Shown piece after piece: positions 2,324-55,345 of a DNA stretch of 64,000 bases. The notes beneath the pieces were generated by a model that did no database searches, was not told the origin of the DNA, and was given only the letters and a program-made list of their open reading frames with translations. The stretch covers positions 1,160,731 through 1,224,730 of the forward strand of contig OX638293.1 of the NCBI GenBank assembly GCA_951812335.1, written 5' to 3'. Position 1 is the first letter of the stretch, and the number at the start of each line of letters is the position of its first letter. Origin of the DNA: Rhodothermales bacterium (lineage in GTDB: Bacteria > Bacteroidota > Rhodothermia > Rhodothermales > VXPQ01). Position numbers and translations under genes: made by a program.

Positions 2324-2342
2324 GGACTTAATCAGAGTATCC
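2324..2342 (+). repeat. Solo right terminus of the structured TIR repeat family (GGACTTAATCAGAGTATCC)
   Basis: The 19-nt string is identical to the right end of the full-length copies at 24899-24917 and 33779-33797. It starts 2 nt after the uxaC stop codon. Confidence 0.75.
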
Positions 2343-6322: not shown

Positions 6323-6439
6323 GGATACTCTGATCAAGACCACTTCGCCCGGCACTTTACTTTCGTACGTAAAGGATGTCATGATTCCATCGTCGGAATT
6401 AACGATACTCTGATCGAAGCGGTTTTAATCAGAGTATCC
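6323..6439 (+). repeat. Structured TIR repeat family, short 117-bp variant
   Basis: Left TIR GGATACTCTGATCAAG, then the CTTTAC..GTAAAG and GATTCC..GGAATC hairpin modules, a degenerate second left end (CGATACTCTGATCGAAG), then the right TIR TTAATCAGAGTATCC. It lies in the divergent spacer before the TPR gene. Confidence 0.85.
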
Positions 6440-22379: not shown

Positions 22380-23444
22380 ATGATCGCCGATGCCGAACCG
22401 GATCACGGGCCGCCGGACGATACCGCTCGAACGGATGACCGTTTGAAACGGCCTCGCGTAGCCGTCACGCTGGGCGATCCCAATGGCATAGGACCGGAAG
22501 TCGTACTCGAGAGCGTGTGTGAAGTACACAGGTTGCGGATAGCGCAGCCCGTTGTCGTGGGGTCCGCACAGGTACTCCGTGCTCATGCTGCGCATGTGGA
22601 AAGCGGCTTGCCGGATATGCAGATCGTTGCTTCCATGCCCGACCGGATTCCGCCGAAGGGGCTGTTCGTTCTCGATATAGCGGCGGACGAACCATTCGAG
22701 CCGGTGTTCGGCAAGGTAGCCGCGGAAGCGGGCGCTCTGGCTATGCGATCGGTCGAACGCGCCGTTGCATTGTGTCTTGCGGGAAAGGTGGATGCTGTGG
22801 TGACAGCGCCTGTTCACAAGGAGGCCATTTCGATGGCCGGGTACATGCATCCGGGCCATACGGAATTCATTGCCGGGCTTGCCGGTTGCAGCCGGTACGC
22901 GATGATGATGATTGCGGAGGGATTGCGGGTTGGTCTTGTGACGGCGCATATGCCTATGCGGGATGTGCCGCATTCCGTCACGCGCGAAGCCGTGCTTGCA
23001 GGTATCCGAGTGGTGGATGCCGCGCTTCGTGCCGATTTCGGCATACGAAGCCCGAAAATTGCCGTACTGGGGCTCAATCCCCATGCCGGGGAGGGAGGCG
23101 TGCTCGGCATGGAAGAAATCGAAGTGATCGGTCCCGCTATCCATGAGGCGCAGGCTGGCGGGCTGCTTGCATCCGGGCCGCATTCTGCGGACGGCTTCTT
23201 TGGGGCAGGCGCCTGGCGCTGGTGCGATGCCGTGCTTGCCATGTACCACGATCAGGGGCTTGCGCCTTTCAAAACGCTTGCTTTCGACCACGGCGTCAAT
23301 TACACCGCGGGCCTGCCGATCGTGCGCACATCCCCGGATCACGGAACCGCATTCGATATTGCGGGTCAAGGAAAGGCGCGTTCGGGAAGTATGTTGAGCG
23401 CCATCCGTCTGGCCGTCGATATAGTGCGGTGCAGGAACAGATAG
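22380..23444 (+). CDS. pdxA: 4-hydroxythreonine-4-phosphate dehydrogenase
   Basis: Contains GDPNGIGPEV, ..VTAP..K.... and GLNPHAGEGG motifs. The ATG at 22380 lies 1 nt after the pepA stop. Confidence 0.9.
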   Translation: MIADAEPDHGPPDDTARTDDRLKRPRVAVTLGDPNGIGPEVVLESVCEVHRLRIAQPVVVGSAQVLRAHAAHVESGLPDMQIVASMPDRIPPKGLFVLDIAADEPFEPVFGKVAAEAGALAMRSVERAVALCLAGKVDAVVTAPVHKEAISMAGYMHPGHTEFIAGLAGCSRYAMMMIAEGLRVGLVTAHMPMRDVPHSVTREAVLAGIRVVDAALRADFGIRSPKIAVLGLNPHAGEGGVLGMEEIEVIGPAIHEAQAGGLLASGPHSADGFFGAGAWRWCDAVLAMYHDQGLAPFKTLAFDHGVNYTAGLPIVRTSPDHGTAFDIAGQGKARSGSMLSAIRLAVDIVRCRNR

Positions 23445-23970
23445 GATACTCTGATCAAAACCACTTCGCTCAGCGCGTCACGTTCGTGCGTACGGGACAT
23501 CATGATTGCATCGTCGAAATTTAAGGATACTCTGATCAAAACCGCTTCGCTCAGCACTTTAAGGATACTCTGACCAAAACCGCTTCGCTCAGCGCTTCAC
23601 GTTCGTGCGTAAACGACATCATGGTTCCCTCGTTGCAATTTGCAAAAAACACTGAGGTTTCGGGCATCGCGGATGTGAAGCGCCCTTCGGGAGGCTGCGA
23701 GAAGTGGGCTGGCCGCGTCATTCCTCATTGTGTGGGGCCTACCACACTGCTTCGTCATTCCTTGCCAGCCCACTTCTCGCAACCTCTGAGCTTTGCGGAC
23801 TTAATCAGAGTATCCTTCACGTTCGTATGTGACGCGCCCTTCGGGAGGCTGCGAGGGGCACGCTGGCCGCGCCATTCCTCATTATGTGGGGCCTGCCACA
23901 TTGCTTCGTTATTCCTTGCCAGCGCACCCCTCGCAAGCCTCTGAGATTCGCGGGCTTAATCAGAGTATCC
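23444..23970 (+). repeat. Compound array of the structured TIR repeat family: left module, solo left end, one full 253-bp copy, one right half
   Basis: Segments: 23444-23524 (left TIR plus hairpin modules), 23525-23562 (left end only), 23563-23815 (full copy), 23816-23970 (right half). The array starts on the last base of the pdxA stop and ends 6 nt before the ftsE ATG, so it fills the whole spacer. Confidence 0.9.
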
Positions 23971-23976
23971 TATGAC

Positions 23977-24660
23977 ATGATCCGTCTTTCCGACATATCG
24001 CTCTCTCACGTTTTGCCCGACGGCCATCGCCGTACCGTGGTCGAACACCTTGACCTGACGATCCAGCAGGGAGAAATGGCGTATCTGGTCGGTCCTACCG
24101 GAAGCGGGAAAACGACCCTGTTGCGGATGTTGTACATGGATGTGTTTCCGGATGCTGGTGTGGCGCAGATAGGCAAGTACCGTACGGATCGAATACGCCA
24201 TGCGGAAATTCCGTATTTGCGGCGCTCTCTGGGCGTTGTGTTTCAGGATTTCCAGTTGCTTTCCGATCGTACGGTGTACGAGAATGTTGCGTTTGCCATG
24301 TATGTCATCGGCAAGCGCGGCAAGGTCGTCAGGGATCGCGTTATGGAGGTGCTTTCGCAGGTGGGGTTGAGTCACAAGAAGAAGCACTTTCCCCACGAGT
24401 TGTCCGGAGGGGAACAACAGCGCGTTTCGATTGCCCGGGCCATGGTGAACGAGCCGCTGATGTTGCTGGCCGACGAACCCACCGGGAATCTGGATCCGAA
24501 TGTCGCCGACGAGATTCTTAAATTGATTGTCGGGCTTCACCGGCAGGGCATGACGGTGCTCATGGCCACGCACAATTATCGTCTGGTTAACCAATTCCCT
24601 GCCCGGACGCTGGGTTTTATGGGTAGACACATTGTGGATGTAGCCCCCGAAACCCTGTAG
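23977..24660 (+). CDS. ftsE: FtsE-like cell-division ABC ATPase
   Basis: Walker [10 protein letters not shown], signature LSGGEQQR, Walker [12 protein letters not shown], 227 aa. No ftsX follows it, so the FtsE assignment is family-level only. Confidence 0.8.
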
Positions 24661-24664
24661 ATAC

Positions 24665-24917
24665 GGATACTCTGATCAAGACCACTTTGCCCGGCACGTC
24701 ACTTTCGCGTGTAAAGGACATCATGATTGCATCGTCGGAATCAGGGGAGGCACTGCGGATTCGGGGCATCGCAGACGTGACGCGCCCTTCGGGAGGCTGC
24801 GAGGGGCACGCTGGCTGCGTCATTCCTCATTGTGCGGGGCCTGCCACACTGCTTCGTCATTCCTTGTCAGCGCATCCCTCTCAGCCTCTGAGCTTTGAGG
24901 ACTTAATCAGAGTATCC
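24665..24917 (+). repeat. Structured TIR repeat family, full-length 253-bp copy
   Basis: GGATACTCTGATCAAG ... CTTAATCAGAGTATCC with all internal modules, including CCCTTCGGG and the long hairpin at 24792-24888. It starts 4 nt after the ftsE stop. Confidence 0.9.
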
Positions 24918-25046
24918 GTATGTGCGCTCTGTCCCGAAATGCTTGCTCCGGATCATGCATGATGCGCAGGCCGTTATGTTCGGGATTGCACAGGAAGATG
25001 TGAAGAAGAGGTCATTCGTTTACTCATCCTTTATACAGGCTCGATT

Positions 25047-26807
25047 ATGGATATTTTTGAAGGGATTGTTTCCGCACTGGAGCGTGTCGTATGGTCATTC
25101 GGTCCCTCTGTCGGCGGTGAGACAATTCCCCTTGTCATCATCCTGCTTCTGGGCACCGGCGTATACCTGACGCTTCGGTTGCAGTTCATTCAGGTTCGTC
25201 GTCTCCGGCATGGGTTTGCCGTAACATCGGGTAAGTACGACGATCCCAACGAGCCCGGAGACGTGTCCCATTTTCAGGCGCTTACCACGGCCCTTTCGGC
25301 TACGGTAGGCATTGGAAATATCGCCGGGGTGGCCATCGCCATTCACTGGGGCGGTCCCGGAGCGATCTTCTGGATGTGGGTCACCGCGTTTCTCGGCATG
25401 GCGACCAAATACACGGAAGTTACGCTTGCGCAGAACTACCGGGATATGGTGCCCGCGGACGATGCGTCCCGCCGGCAGGGCACGGTGGCGGGCGGGCCGA
25501 TGTATTATATCGAACGAGGAATGGGGAAGAAGTGGAAGTTGCTTGCCGGATTTTTTGCCGTGCTTCTTGGCATCACCGCTTTTTTAACCGGCAACGCGGT
25601 TCAGGCCAATACCGTAGCCGATGTGGTGTTCTCCGAGTTTGGTGTGGCCGCCTGGATTACGGGTATCGTGACCGCGGCTGTCATAGGCATGGTCATTCTC
25701 GGGGGCATTAGTCGTATCGGCCGGGTGACCGGGATCCTTGCGCCTGCAATGGCCGCCGTGTATGTACTGGGCGCCCTCGTGATCATTGTGATCAACATAG
25801 ACCAGCTTCCCGGCGCACTGGGGCTCATTTTCAGGGAGGCGTTCAATCCGAGCGCCGGCGTGGCCGGGGTTGGCACGGGAGCGTTCCTTCTTACGCTCAT
25901 GTGGGGCGTTCGCCGCGGGCTGTTTTCGAACGAAGCCGGGCAGGGGTCGGCGCCCATTGCACACTCTGCGGCCAAGACCGACGAGCCCGTCTCGGAGGGG
26001 GTCGTTGCCTTGCTCGAACCGTTCATCGACACCATCGTGATTTGTACGATGACGGCGCTGGTCATCCTGATAACCGGCGTGTGGAATGAGCAGGCGCCCA
26101 CGGAACTGGATCTGGCGTCGGGCGATATGGGCTATGTACAGCAGGATGGGGCGGGCGCCTTTTCCACGGTCGATCCCCTGGATGAAATCCTGATTCGCGA
26201 CGGGACACCGCTAACCGGCCCGGGCATGGCGCAACCTGCCTGGCACGATGTGGTTGTCGAGCGCCTGTTTGTCGACGCGGCGCATACCGAGCCTTTCACC
26301 GGGACCCTGGTTCCTGCCAGTCAACACGCCATCGGGAATGACGGGGATATGTATGCGGTGCTGTACGGCAATGCCGTCGAGAACGGTGCGCCGATGACGC
26401 AACTCGGTTTTCAGCGGGGGTTGGCTCCGCTGGGGAATTGGGGCGGGTACATCGTTATTCTATGCGTGCTGCTTTTCGCTATTTCGACCGCCATTGCATG
26501 GAGTTATTACGGCGACCGTTGCGCCTATTATCTGTTTGGCGAAAAGGGAGTGCTTCCGTACAAGGCGGCTTTTGTGGCGATGCACTTTGTGGGCGCTACG
26601 CTGGCCCTGACGACGGTCTGGACCCTGGGCGATGTGTTCCTTGGGATCGTGATTCTTCCGAACCTGCTGGCAATGATATTCCTTTCGGGCAAGGTTCGGG
26701 AAATGACGCTCGGATATTTCAAGCGCCAGCCCTGGATCGAGAATTATGAGGCGCACAAGCGCAGCGTCGAAGAGAAACGGAGCAAGAAACGGCAATCCCG
26801 TGATTAA
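25047..26807 (+). CDS. Alanine/glycine:sodium symporter (AGCS family) with a large internal insertion
   Basis: Contains ..SHFQALTTALSATVGIGNIAGVA.AI..GGPGA.FWMW.. and ..FSNEAGQGSAPIAHSAAKT... At 586 aa it is longer than family members known to me. Confidence 0.85.
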   Translation: MDIFEGIVSALERVVWSFGPSVGGETIPLVIILLLGTGVYLTLRLQFIQVRRLRHGFAVTSGKYDDPNEPGDVSHFQALTTALSATVGIGNIAGVAIAIHWGGPGAIFWMWVTAFLGMATKYTEVTLAQNYRDMVPADDASRRQGTVAGGPMYYIERGMGKKWKLLAGFFAVLLGITAFLTGNAVQANTVADVVFSEFGVAAWITGIVTAAVIGMVILGGISRIGRVTGILAPAMAAVYVLGALVIIVINIDQLPGALGLIFREAFNPSAGVAGVGTGAFLLTLMWGVRRGLFSNEAGQGSAPIAHSAAKTDEPVSEGVVALLEPFIDTIVICTMTALVILITGVWNEQAPTELDLASGDMGYVQQDGAGAFSTVDPLDEILIRDGTPLTGPGMAQPAWHDVVVERLFVDAAHTEPFTGTLVPASQHAIGNDGDMYAVLYGNAVENGAPMTQLGFQRGLAPLGNWGGYIVILCVLLFAISTAIAWSYYGDRCAYYLFGEKGVLPYKAAFVAMHFVGATLALTTVWTLGDVFLGIVILPNLLAMIFLSGKVREMTLGYFKRQPWIENYEAHKRSVEEKRSKKRQSRD

Positions 26808-33543: not shown

Positions 33544-33797
33544 GGATACTCTGATCGAAACCACTTCGCCCGGCACTTTACTTTCGCGCGTAAAGGACGT
33601 CATGATTCCATCGTCGGAATCGGCTAGAAACACTGCGGATCCGGGGCGCCGCGGACGCGACGCGCCCTTCGGGAGGCTGCGAGGTGCACGCTGGCCGCGT
33701 CATTCCTCATTATGTGGGGCCTGTCGCACTGCTTCGTCATTCCTTGCCGGCGCACCCCTTGCAGCCTCTGAGTTTTGCGGACTTAATCAGAGTATCC
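33544..33797 (+). repeat. Structured TIR repeat family, full-length 254-bp copy
   Basis: It is collinear with the copies at 24665-24917 and 23563-23815 and lies in the divergent spacer upstream of the PHP gene. Confidence 0.9.
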
Positions 33798-37774: not shown

Positions 37775-37849
37775 GGTGACCGTAGCTCAGTCGGTTAGAG
37801 CGCCAGGTTGTGGCCCTGGAGGTCGTGGGTTCGATTCCCATCGGTCACC
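37775..37849 (+). tRNA. tRNA-His (anticodon GTG)
   Basis: I folded the cloverleaf by hand. The acceptor stem is 8 bp including G-1:C73 (GGTGACCG/CGGTCACC). D arm GCTC/GAGC; anticodon stem CCAGG/CCTGG with loop TTGTGGC; T arm GTGGG-TTCGATT-CCCAT. Confidence 0.9.
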
Positions 37850-37862
37850 CGCATGAGTATAT

Positions 37863-37938
37863 GCCGCGTTCGTCTAGGGGTCCAGGACGCCGGCCTTTCA
37901 CGCCGGTAACACGGGTTCAAATCCCGTACGCGGTACCA
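37863..37938 (+). tRNA. tRNA-Glu (anticodon TTC), CCA encoded
   Basis: Acceptor GCCGCGT/ACGCGGT; D arm GTC..GAC as in other tRNA-Glu; anticodon stem CCGGC/GCCGG with loop CTTTCAC; T arm ACGGG-TTCAAAT-CCCGT; then A-CCA. Confidence 0.9.
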
Positions 37939-42676: not shown

Positions 42677-42690
42677 GGATGCTCTGATCC

Positions 42691-44193
42691 ATGTCGTCTC
42701 CCGTACTTCGCCTTGAGGGCATCCGCAAATCGTTCGGCCCTGTGCACGCGCTCCAGGGCGTGGACCTGAACGTGCGGGCAGGCGAAGTGCATGCGCTTGT
42801 AGGCGAGAACGGCGCCGGAAAAAGCACGCTCATGAAGATATTGAGCGGTGCATACCAACCCGATGCGGGGAGCATGACCTTGTACGGCGAGTCTTATGCG
42901 CCGGCAAATCCGCTGGACGGGCGCGCCGCCGGCATCAGCATGATTTACCAGGAACTCGTGCTGGCGCCGCACCTGACCGTCGAGGAGAATGTGACCCTCG
43001 GCGCCGAGCATGCCCTCTACGGGTGGGTCCGTCCCCGTACCCGTGAAGTAGAGCGGGTCCTGACAGATCTTGGCCAGCAGGGAATCGCGCCCAACGCAAG
43101 GGTAAGCGACCTGAGCATAGGCAAGAAGCAACTGGTCGAAATTGCCCGGGCGCTGCTCTTCGACGCCCGTATCGTGGTCATGGACGAGCCCACCAGTTCA
43201 TTGACTGCCGACGATACGAAAGCGCTGTTCGAGGCCATTGGCCGGATGAAAGAACAGGGACTTGCCGTCATTTATATCAGCCATTTCCTCGAAGAAGTGC
43301 AGGAGGTGTGCGATCGCTACACCGTGCTGCGCGACGGAAAGATGATTTCGACCGGACGGGTCGCCGACACATCCATCCCCCGCATCATAGAAGATATGGT
43401 GGGGCGCTCGGTGGACGAACTTTTTCCCTCCAGCAACCATGAGATCGGCGATCCGCTGCTGGATGTTTCCGATTTACAAGGGCGGAAGGGCCTTCCGGGC
43501 GGCGTCCGTTTTACGCTGCATCGCGGGGAAATCATGGGCATTTCCGGGTTAGTAGGCTCAGGGCGCTCCGAGACGGTGCGGACGCTTTTCGGGCTGGAGC
43601 CGGCCACCGGCGGCACGTTATCGATCAGGGGCCATGATGCGCTACGCGCCGCCTGGATGACGCCGCGGGCTGCGCTCAACCGGGGATTGGACCTTTTGAG
43701 CGAGGACCGGAAGGAAGAAGGCCTTGCGCTCAATTTGTCGCTGGTTTTCAATCTGACCTTATCCGACCTGCGCCGCTACAGCCGGGCCGGGTTTCTGCAA
43801 CTGGCCAGGGAACGTAGCGACGGAGCGCACTGGATTGATGTCCTGCGCATTCGCACCGGCTCCGTCGAGCAGCGGGCCGACGAACTTTCGGGCGGAAACC
43901 AGCAGAAAGTGTGTCTGGCGCGCCTCCTGCAGCAGGACAACGATATTCTTTTCCTGGACGAACCCACCCGGGGTATCGATATCGGCAGCAAGGCCGAGAT
44001 ATACAAGCTCGTCCACCGCCTTGCCGAGCAGGGCAAAGCCATCGTGACGATCAGTTCGTACCTGCCCGAACTGCTGGGCGTGTGCGACACGCTGGGGGTC
44101 ATGCACAAGGGGCGCCTTTCGACCGTGCGTCCTATCCGCGAATGGACCGAACACCGTATTATGCAATTCGCCACATCCGGATACGACGCATGA
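42691..44193 (+). CDS. Sugar ABC transporter ATP-binding protein (duplicated ABC domains, RbsA/MglA type)
   Basis: Two ABC cassettes: GENGAGKST with a degenerate signature (LSIGKKQ), then LSGGNQQK .. LDEPTRGID. 500 aa. Confidence 0.9.
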   Translation: MSSPVLRLEGIRKSFGPVHALQGVDLNVRAGEVHALVGENGAGKSTLMKILSGAYQPDAGSMTLYGESYAPANPLDGRAAGISMIYQELVLAPHLTVEENVTLGAEHALYGWVRPRTREVERVLTDLGQQGIAPNARVSDLSIGKKQLVEIARALLFDARIVVMDEPTSSLTADDTKALFEAIGRMKEQGLAVIYISHFLEEVQEVCDRYTVLRDGKMISTGRVADTSIPRIIEDMVGRSVDELFPSSNHEIGDPLLDVSDLQGRKGLPGGVRFTLHRGEIMGISGLVGSGRSETVRTLFGLEPATGGTLSIRGHDALRAAWMTPRAALNRGLDLLSEDRKEEGLALNLSLVFNLTLSDLRRYSRAGFLQLARERSDGAHWIDVLRIRTGSVEQRADELSGGNQQKVCLARLLQQDNDILFLDEPTRGIDIGSKAEIYKLVHRLAEQGKAIVTISSYLPELLGVCDTLGVMHKGRLSTVRPIREWTEHRIMQFATSGYDA

Positions 44194-48513: not shown

Positions 48514-48645
48514 GGATACTCTGATTAAGTTCACTTTGATCAGCGCTTCACGTTCGTGCGTAAGAATATTATAATTGCATCGTCATATTCCTTGCCAGCG
48601 CACCCCTTTCAGCCTCTGAACTTCGCGGACTTAATCAGAGTATCC
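48514..48645 (+). repeat. Structured TIR repeat family, internally deleted 132-bp copy
   Basis: GGATACTCTGATTAAG ... CTTAATCAGAGTATCC. It keeps the left module and only the 3' arm of the long hairpin. It lies in the divergent spacer between nth and the DUF4105 gene. Confidence 0.85.
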
Positions 48646-54789: not shown

Positions 54790-54842
54790 CTGTTCAGCCG
54801 TTACTATGTCCGAGGGAATGGGCGCAATGGCATCGCGGGCGG

Positions 54843-54944
54843 AAAGCGCCCTTCGGGAGGCTGCGAGGGGTGCGCTGGCCGCGTCATCCCTTGCCAGCGC
54901 ACCCCTCGCAGCCTCTGAGTTTTACGGATTGAATCAGAGTATCC
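54843..54944 (+). repeat. Structured TIR repeat family, right half only, with near-perfect 24-bp hairpin
   Basis: ..GCGCCCTTCGGG, then arm 54856-54879 (GGAGGCTGCGAGGGGTGCGCTGGC), a 13-nt loop, arm 54893-54916, then ..GAATCAGAGTATCC. No left end is present. Confidence 0.85.
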
Positions 54945-55158: not shown

Positions 55159-55345
55159 GGATACTCTGACCAAAACCGCTTCGCTCAGCACTTCACGTTC
55201 ACACGTGAAGCGCCCTTCGGGAGTCTGAGAGAAGCACGCTGACCGCGTCATTCCTCATTGTGTGGGGCCTGCCACACTGCTTCGTCATTCCTTGCCAGCG
55301 CACTTCTTTCAGCCTCTGAGCTTTGCGGACTTAATCAGATTATCC
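55159..55345 (+). repeat. Structured TIR repeat family, 187-bp variant
   Basis: GGATACTCTGACCAAAA.., then CTTCACGT-TCAC-ACGTGAAG joined directly to GCGCCCTTCGGG and the long hairpin, ending ..CTTAATCAGATTATCC 1 nt before the ATG at 55347. Confidence 0.85.

Follow-up and report, generated by a model that had tools for sequence, protein, structure and literature searches.

The 64,000 nucleotides at positions 1,160,731 to 1,224,730 of contig OX638293.1 (assembly GCA_951812335.1), from a Rhodothermales bacterium, contain a dense set of repeats of about 253 bp that are rich in hairpins. Here, we ask what these repeats are, how they spread, and why part of their interior is so strongly conserved. 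This whole stretch is called the window, and its positions are counted from its first letter. The repeats very probably are a family of miniature inverted-repeat transposable elements (MITEs) mobilised by a transposase of the IS5 group of insertion sequences (ISs). This identification follows from their terminal inverted repeats (TIRs), a 4-bp target duplication, orthologous sites with and without the element, and an IS5-family IS with the same ends. Moreover, the elements are dispersed, non-coding and not mobile by themselves, and at 250-258 bp they lie below the size limit of about 600 bp for bacterial MITEs. Neither the target duplication nor the IS partner, which lies outside the window, was noticed in a preliminary description of the locus made from the letters of the window.

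The 11-nt end GGATACTCTGA occurred 16 times in the window, against 0.01 occurrences expected from dinucleotide-preserving shuffles. Copies were recovered by direct reading of positions 23300-25100 and with a repeat finder (families D1-D7). A profile made from the three full-length copies and iterated once recovered the same parts of the window, with the copies at 48514-48645 and 55159-55345 each recovered as two pieces. All copies lay on the plus strand. The loci listed in the preliminary description were found where it had placed them, and its collinear full copies of 253-254 bp were three in number (Table 1). Several boundaries needed refinement, however. The array at 23444-23970 consists of a partial copy A followed by a copy B that is split by copy C, the locus at 6323-6439 is a truncated copy plus a mini-copy, and the fragment ending at 54944 starts at 54829 and has no left end.

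A part of OX638295.1, which is the chromosome of an uncultured Rhodothermales metagenome-assembled genome (MAG), matches the window at 99.4% identity. The right-end pattern, searched for as an exact match in 185,579 species genomes, was found in at least 86 stretches; among the matches listed, all but four were in Rhodothermales MAGs, representing nine assemblies. The other four, in Anaerolinea, Dethiosulfatibacter and ELA738 (two stretches), were isolated 19-mers or gave no profile match, had neither element nor transposase, and were treated as chance matches. Viral contigs yielded one chance 19-mer match and no element. When metagenomes were scanned with two loop motifs, 95 stretches matched. 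Almost all of them belong to two sponge metagenomes, LXNJ (Petrosia ficiformis) and LXNI (Sarcotragus foetidus) (PMC5099237), in which 154 further clusters were found. The known range of the family comprises uncultured Rhodothermales MAGs, among the matches listed, and these two marine-sponge metagenomes.

In the window and the 86 genome loci together, we found 148 non-overlapping profile matches in 117 clusters, including 41 full-length copies of 250-258 bp. The 117 clusters fell into 105 groups with unrelated flanks, and hence the copies in different genomes are mostly separate insertions. Based on 8 extra clusters in 144 kb of sampled blocks and 7 clusters in the 64-kb window, a rough extrapolation gives about 150-300 copies per genome; the hundreds of copies expected in the preliminary description are likewise an extrapolation.

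The TIRs are 16 bp long, as described before. Their ends, GGATACTCTGATYRA and CTTAATCAGAGTATCC, match in inverted orientation at 15 of 16 positions, and the helix that they form (helix 1) is paired at 99.3% over 39 aligned copies. On either side, full copies are mostly flanked by the four bases TTAA. Some copies instead have flanking direct repeats that are not palindromic (such as TACA/TACA, TAAA/TAAA and CTAA/CTAA), which shows that the flanks are a target duplication rather than an extension of the inverted repeat. Identical flanking 4-mers were found in 12 of the 74 two-ended elements, against 4.9 in shuffles, while the flanks of 45 elements matched at three or more of the four positions. 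To find empty sites, flanks were joined and searched for in the other loci, which gave three clean cases of an orthologous site filled in one locus and empty in another. TGTA, TTCA and TCAA stood at the empty sites; their filled counterparts read TGTA...TATA, TTCA...TTTA and TCAA...TTAA. This comparison implies a duplication of 4 bp, one copy of which has since mutated from G:C to A:T.

Such a G:C to A:T transition in one copy of the duplication was seen at each of the three clean filled sites (loci L021, L042 and L047), and the perfect duplications that survive are mostly pure A/T. These observations suggest a strong AT-ward mutation pressure at unconstrained sites of these GC-rich genomes. 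At L082:6857-6936, an 80-bp one-ended MITE fragment lies between 11-bp direct repeats (TATATCCTGTA), and the corresponding window site at about 47633 is empty. This points to an event that was not of the 4-bp-duplication type, but different and possibly abortive or recombinational. The only candidate pair of orthologous filled sites, window 55159 and L013 6206, had flanks that could not be aligned, and may represent two independent insertions.

An autonomous partner was sought as pairs of inverted ends more than 400 bp apart. This yielded an IS of 1181 bp at L055:1151-2331 in MAG OZ252093, which starts with GGATACTCTGATCAA, ends with GGCCTTAATCAGAGTATCC and is flanked by TATA on both sides. 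Its open reading frame (ORF) of 315 amino acids matched NF033581 (transpos_IS5_4, IS5 family) with 324 bits at a cut-off of 140, as well as PF01609 (7.6e-32) and PF05598 (7.4e-21). Thousands of IS5-family proteins resemble the predicted transposase at about 60% identity, and relatives at 74-92% identity reside in elements that share the same ends. IS copies with these ends were found at L055:1151-2331, L087:1435-2605, L088:1435-2737 and L089/L090. Their lengths range from 1171 to 1303 bp and their duplications (TTAA, TATA or TTTT) are perfect, two of the relatives having perfect TTAA or TTTT duplications. Elements of the IS5 group measure about 1.2 kb, have short TIRs and duplicate 4 bp at YTAR-type targets, and the partner IS fits these features in length, TIRs and duplication. 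In L089, the IS adjoins a MITE end across a common TTAA. A second IS copy occurs in L028 (also OZ252093), and a decayed one lies beside a MITE end in L100. In L088, the right IS end and its flank (GGATTGATCAGAGTATCC|ttttgtatat) occur twice in identical form, at 2737 and 3287 and thus 550 bp apart, which looks like a local duplication beside the IS.

These data are consistent with the following mechanism. The DDE transposase of the IS5-group IS would recognise the common 16-bp ends GGATACTCTGATYAA and insert the element at TTAA-like (TWWA) sites, duplicating 4 bp. The shared ends suggest that the MITE is mobilised in trans. In this GC-rich genome, TTAA-like sites would be mainly intergenic or formed by TAA stop codons, such that copies would accumulate after genes and in promoter regions. 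The interior is unrelated to the IS. Between the paired ends, it folds into a left hairpin that varies among copies and a right hairpin that is conserved. Copies shrink by deletion between internal direct repeats and nest into one another, and examples of both were found. Transcription from neighbouring genes may read through the copies, with those in sense orientation being tolerated, and the core may be retained by selection on element lineages that are still proliferating.

Shrinkage of copies is documented at an orthologous site, where a copy of 132 bp in the window corresponds to one of 37 bp in L082; in the latter, the left-end CTCTGA is fused to an internal CCTCTGA. Mini-copies of 36-37 bp recur eight times, and a form of 187-190 bp without the variable module recurs in several genomes. 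The short forms (187, 132, 63 and 37 bp) thus arise when sequence between short direct repeats inside the element, such as CTCTGA, is deleted, and the interpretation of short copies as module deletions in the preliminary description was correct. Nesting of a full copy inside a 190-bp-type copy was found at window 23525-23970 and at L034:3106-3470, two unrelated loci of the same species, with identical junctions (CTTTAA|GGATAC and GTATCC|TTCACG). Because the same nested pair occurs at L034, the composite has probably moved or been duplicated as a unit. Its left junction fits poorly to a clean 4-bp duplication.

The fold of the element was studied in an alignment of 39 copies (A2), which is free of bias toward the loops because its copies were gathered via the right end. 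In the consensus fold, the element is closed by pairing of its two ends. Inside, columns 30-42 pair with 114-126 to form a left long-range stem around the variable module, and the right hairpin (columns 129-239) is built from three stacked stems together with an internal loop and an inner hairpin. In total, 15 pairs showed double changes, compared with 7.0±1.4 in column shuffles; none of 500 shuffles reached as high, and the signal was lost when partners were slid by 1-3 columns. The long stem with its nested GTGTGG..CCACAC hairpin, proposed earlier, is thus real and covarying. In contrast, the hairpins CTTTAC..GTAAAG and GATTCC..GGAATC, which had been proposed as features of the family, are specific to single copies and lie in its most variable module. 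G-U cells (135) outnumbered A-C cells (23), mainly owing to three fixed G-U pairs, and standard pairing amounted to 97.4% on the plus strand versus 92.1% on the minus strand. This provides modest evidence that it is the plus strand that folds, either as RNA or as single-stranded DNA. A second fold, made with RNAalifold from 98 distinct full copies, was poorer than the 39-copy fold and was not used; nor was loop conservation in that set, which is biased since its metagenome copies had been fetched via the loop sequence.

Conservation was distributed unevenly over the element. Mean pairwise identity in A2 was highest on the 3' side (98.7%) and the 5' side (96.5%) of the internal loop, followed by the right TIR (95%), the left TIR (93%), the GCGCCC box (91%), the stems of the right hairpin and the inner hairpin (83-85%) and the variable module (64%). 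The motif GCGCCCTTCGGG, called invariant in the preliminary description, was kept in every window copy that still holds this part of the element, and showed only one substitution among the 39 full copies from several genomes. The motif GTCATTCCT is present on both sides of the internal loop, giving the folded loop two-fold symmetry; the motif occurred 126 times inside elements and twice outside. Private mutations were fewer in the loops (3 of 1170 cells) than elsewhere (81 of 9009 cells; p=0.016). Copy age or recombination cannot account for invariant loops amid covarying stems, and hence the loop sequence itself is under selection.

A rival reading concerns what this selection acts on. The conserved right-hand core could be a functional RNA on a MITE chassis, used by the host as a module for mRNA stability or processing or as a protein-binding site, and selected by the host at each site. 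Covarying stems interleaved with near-invariant loops, the fixed G-U pairs together with the better pairing of the plus strand, the rarity of private mutations in the loops, and a bias toward sense orientation in two data sets (see below) would all agree with such a role. However, the loops were equally intact regardless of gene context, with 0.23 mismatches per 28 nt in sense copies, 0.33 in antisense, 0.54 in divergent and 0.86 in convergent copies (small numbers), and many copies have lost the core entirely at their sites. The core was never seen without the TIRs, it matched no Rfam family, and neither promoter nor terminator was detected in 23300-25100. Because loop integrity does not depend on context and the core is often lost, the data favour selection on still-proliferating element lineages over host selection per site, although the numbers are small and private mutations are rarer in the loops. 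We regard per-site use by the host as rather unlikely.

A related reading, to which we give slightly more credence but which we still consider less likely than not, is that the MITE serves as the vehicle of a conserved, structured nucleic-acid module with a biochemical role of its own. The same 9-mer, GUCAUUCCU, occurs on both sides of the internal loop, and these sides exceed the transposase-binding ends in conservation. If this reading is true, the two-fold-symmetric loop sides would suit a dimeric binding factor, and a role in the transcript (processing, stability or protein capture) would account for the sense bias. Alternatively, the module would be an accessory site that boosts mobilisation. 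We also considered the loop motif GTCATTCC as a transposase site common to the IS, and rejected this because the motif was absent from all five IS copies.

Orientation relative to genes was scored with crude, home-made gene calls based on codon scores. Between co-directional genes, 38 copies were in sense and 7 in antisense orientation (p=3e-6), or 34 and 7 after collapsing shared flanks (p=2.5e-5). The independent loci of the sponge metagenomes gave 44 sense and 16 antisense copies (p=4e-4). Divergent intergenic regions harboured 33 copies, versus 13 in convergent regions. Among 55 left ends that faced the 3' end of a gene, 28 were no more than 12 nt from the stop codon, compared with 7 of 28 right ends. 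Such closeness would be expected if the TTAA target overlaps TAA stops and sense copies survive.

Strand patterns also bear on whether the repeats could be REP/REPIN-like or IS200/IS605-type single-strand elements, moved via their hairpins by an HUH enzyme (RAYT or TnpA). Hairpins are numerous, the window copies all lie on one strand, and the copies on OX638295 show a loose replichore-like pattern. Against this, HUH-mobilised elements lack the true TIRs, the 4-bp duplication and the DDE IS5 partner of identical ends that the present family has. Moreover, the replichore-linked look of the OX638295 copies appeared under a post-hoc split; when split by local GC skew, agreement was only about 70%, which is what gene-strand bias plus sense preference predicts. 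A replication-strand bias of the HUH kind is not needed to explain the data, and we consider this origin highly improbable. As separate observations, the 7-8 window loci on one strand include four in divergent intergenic regions, which have no transcriptional polarity, and the copies on the OX638295 chromosome (L004-L080) form long same-strand runs. Equally remote is the idea of non-mobile repeats, that is, ordinary multi-copy non-coding RNA genes, segmental duplication or mis-assembly: high identity among copies and the same nested arrangement at window 23525-23970 and L034:3106-3470 would suit it, but it conflicts with 105 unrelated-flank groups in at least nine MAGs and two independent metagenomes, with filled and empty orthologous sites, and with the near-identity of the window to an independently deposited chromosome.

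Several points weigh against an IS5-mobilised MITE. Mobilisation in trans is inferred from the sharing of ends. The IS and the MITE share these ends alone, with no similarity found between their interiors. Target duplications are imperfect for most copies, only 12 of 74 being identical. Loops that are more conserved than the TIRs run contrary to what a purely selfish MITE predicts, and the orientation counts depend on the crude gene calls. Furthermore, no homologue of the cognate transposase was found in the window, in agreement with the preliminary description, or in 18 sampled 8-kb blocks of OX638295; in this genome the MITE family may be orphaned, or may be served by a rare IS outside the sampled blocks. 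Conversely, OZ252093, with two IS copies, had no MITE among the matches listed, and the MITE-rich MAGs (OX638295, OZ220746 and OZ246975 loci) had no IS among the matches listed. At most, this hints at MITEs being orphaned in some lineages.

Searches for other functions gave little. At the gathering threshold, Rfam matched only two tRNAs in the whole window and no repeat family, and a search of the locus at E≤10 returned only sub-threshold microRNA and small nucleolar RNA look-alikes. Neither sigma-70 promoters nor intrinsic terminators were predicted on either strand of 23300-25100, with Bacteroidota-type promoters lying outside the coverage of the tool. A recurrent minus-strand ORF (MTKQCGRPH...; MTKQCGRPHIMRNDTASVPLAASRRARH...) starts at AGGAATG in loop 3 of nearly all copies. 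A coding role was rejected: its length varies from 7 to 97 amino acids, codon periodicity is absent, and variability is not concentrated at third positions. Gene callers likely annotate it as a hypothetical protein. In the region of the reference copy, this ORF spans window positions 24617-24823 on the minus strand.

Bacterial MITE/IS5 pairs are a known kind of mobile DNA; what is new, judged on Rfam and the literature, is this family. Our literature search found no paper on this repeat or on MITEs of Rhodothermales or sponge symbionts, in line with the preliminary description, which did not recognise the sequence as a described family. Closest in kind are the MITEs that share IS5-family ends in Porphyromonas gingivalis (BrickBuilt, MITE293 and MITE700, with ISPg1/3/4/9) and Neisseria (ATR, with ISNme1) (PMC4596501). 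Like the present family, these are non-coding, have TIRs identical or nearly identical to those of an IS5-family IS and an interior unrelated to it, occur in many intergenic copies, nest into one another and leave fragments. Moreover, P. gingivalis also belongs to the wider Bacteroidota-Rhodothermota group. The families differ in their TIRs (GGATACTCTGATYAA here versus GAGACCTTTGCA there), in copy density (much higher here, at about one per 8-20 kb, versus 10-20 reported copies per genome) and in their interior, since the present family has no minisatellite but a covarying two-hairpin fold with invariant loops.

The preliminary description had compared the repeats with ERIC or Correia-type elements. 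This holds for the kind of element, a TIR-bounded, MITE-like repeat, but not for membership, as sequence, size, host and target all differ. ERIC, or IRU, of enterobacteria is a TIR-bounded intergenic repeat that forms a long hairpin. It is co-transcribed with its neighbours, and its orientation decides the effect on mRNA stability (PMC2229807, citing De Gregorio et al. 2005), which makes it the best analogue for the sense bias. ERIC is, however, 127 bp long, enterobacterial and unrelated in sequence, whereas the present element is 253 bp long and has an IS5 partner and a 4-bp TTAA-type duplication; the ends and interior also differ from the ERIC consensus. No cognate IS is known to have been established for ERIC. 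Correia (NEMIS) elements resemble the present family as abundant TIR-bounded MITEs with full and internally deleted size classes that are co-transcribed and form RNA hairpins. They are 100-155 bp long, with 26-bp TIRs, a TA duplication and an IHF site, and are confined to Neisseria. The present family differs from them in its 16-bp TIRs, 4-bp TTAA-like duplication and Rhodothermales host, and has no sequence similarity to them. REP/REPIN sequences, mobilised by RAYT, are likewise abundant intergenic palindromic repeats, similar in their high abundance, conserved structure and long persistence (PMC3116915). Unlike the present family, REPINs have no IS TIRs, no target duplication and no DDE partner.

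Coordinates of the repeat copies in the window, and of the parts of the reference copy, are listed in Table 1. The order of features around the array is pdxA (TIGR00557, 384 bits), the 527-bp array, an ftsE-like gene encoding an ABC ATPase, the reference full copy and agcS. The right end of the array (23970) lies 6 nt upstream of the ATG of the ftsE-like gene at 23977, and this gene must be transcribed through, or from inside, the 527 bp of repeat.

Table 1. Positions of MITE copies in the window and of the parts of the reference copy.
Feature	Position	Strand	Remarks
Solo right end CTTAATCAGAGTATCC, remainder of copy lost	2324..2342	+	Found by repeat finder; starts 2 nt past the stop codon of gene 877-2322
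Truncated copy, left end with model positions 1-85	6323..6407	+	Found by profile
Mini-copy of 37 bp, both ends fused via internal deletion	6403..6439	+	TTAA on left side
Copy A, left part only (model 1-78)	23444..23521	+	First G supplies last base of the pdxA TAG stop (23442-23444)
Copy B, left 36 nt	23525..23560	+	Deletion copy of the 190-bp type, with copy C inserted in it
Copy C, full length (253 bp), nested in copy B	23563..23815	+	Flanks TTAA and TTCA
Rest of copy B	23816..23970	+	Left-arm remnant at 23816-23823; model 109-254 at 23824-23970
Reference full copy (253 bp)	24665..24917	+	Between ftsE-like gene (stop 24660) and agcS (start 25047)
Left TIR of reference copy	24665..24680	+	Helix 1
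GCGCCCTTCGGGAGG box, nearly invariant	24782..24796	+	Junction of left long-range stem and right hairpin
Internal loop, 5' side, GTCATTCCTCATT	24819..24831	+	96.5% mean identity among copies
Inner hairpin GTGYGG..CCRCAC, with compensatory changes	24832..24849	+	Helix 7
Internal loop, 3' side, TGCTTCGTCATTCCTTG	24850..24866	+	Repeats the GTCATTCCT motif; 98.7% mean identity
Right TIR of reference copy	24902..24917	+	
Full copy (254 bp)	33544..33797	+	Divergent intergenic region
Deletion copy of 132 bp (model 1-72 joined to 185-254)	48514..48645	+	37-bp mini-copy at orthologous L082 site
Right-hand fragment without left end (model 102-254, internal deletion)	54829..54944	+	
Deletion form of 187 bp (model 1-47 joined to 112-254)	55159..55345	+	Form recurs across several genomes

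Two further observations concern the window. The sequence GGATGCTCTGAT at 42677-42688, directly upstream of a gene starting at 42691, agrees with the MITE end in 11 of its 12 letters. The rest of the element was absent there, which leaves chance or a very old remnant as the explanation. Rfam and ARAGORN matched nothing in the window except a tandem of tRNA-His(GTG) and tRNA-Glu(TTC) at 37776-37938.

For annotation, the findings mean that these MAGs carry on the order of 100 or more unannotated repeats, which overlap stop codons and lie within a few bases of start codons, and whose spurious ORF of 35-60 amino acids may be reported by gene callers. A model of the family would clean up such calls, and would also mark possible break points of assemblies. 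Current understanding is not overturned by these results. For biology, they provide a well-resolved MITE/IS5 pair from an uncultured, sponge-associated lineage and, if the MITE is indeed the vehicle of a module with a role of its own, a mobile functional RNA or DNA motif in the genomes of sponge symbionts. The family also offers a natural data set to study why the loops of a MITE are stricter than its own ends, and why sense copies preferentially survive. Both questions bear on the tolerance or co-option of mobile repeats in bacterial transcripts.

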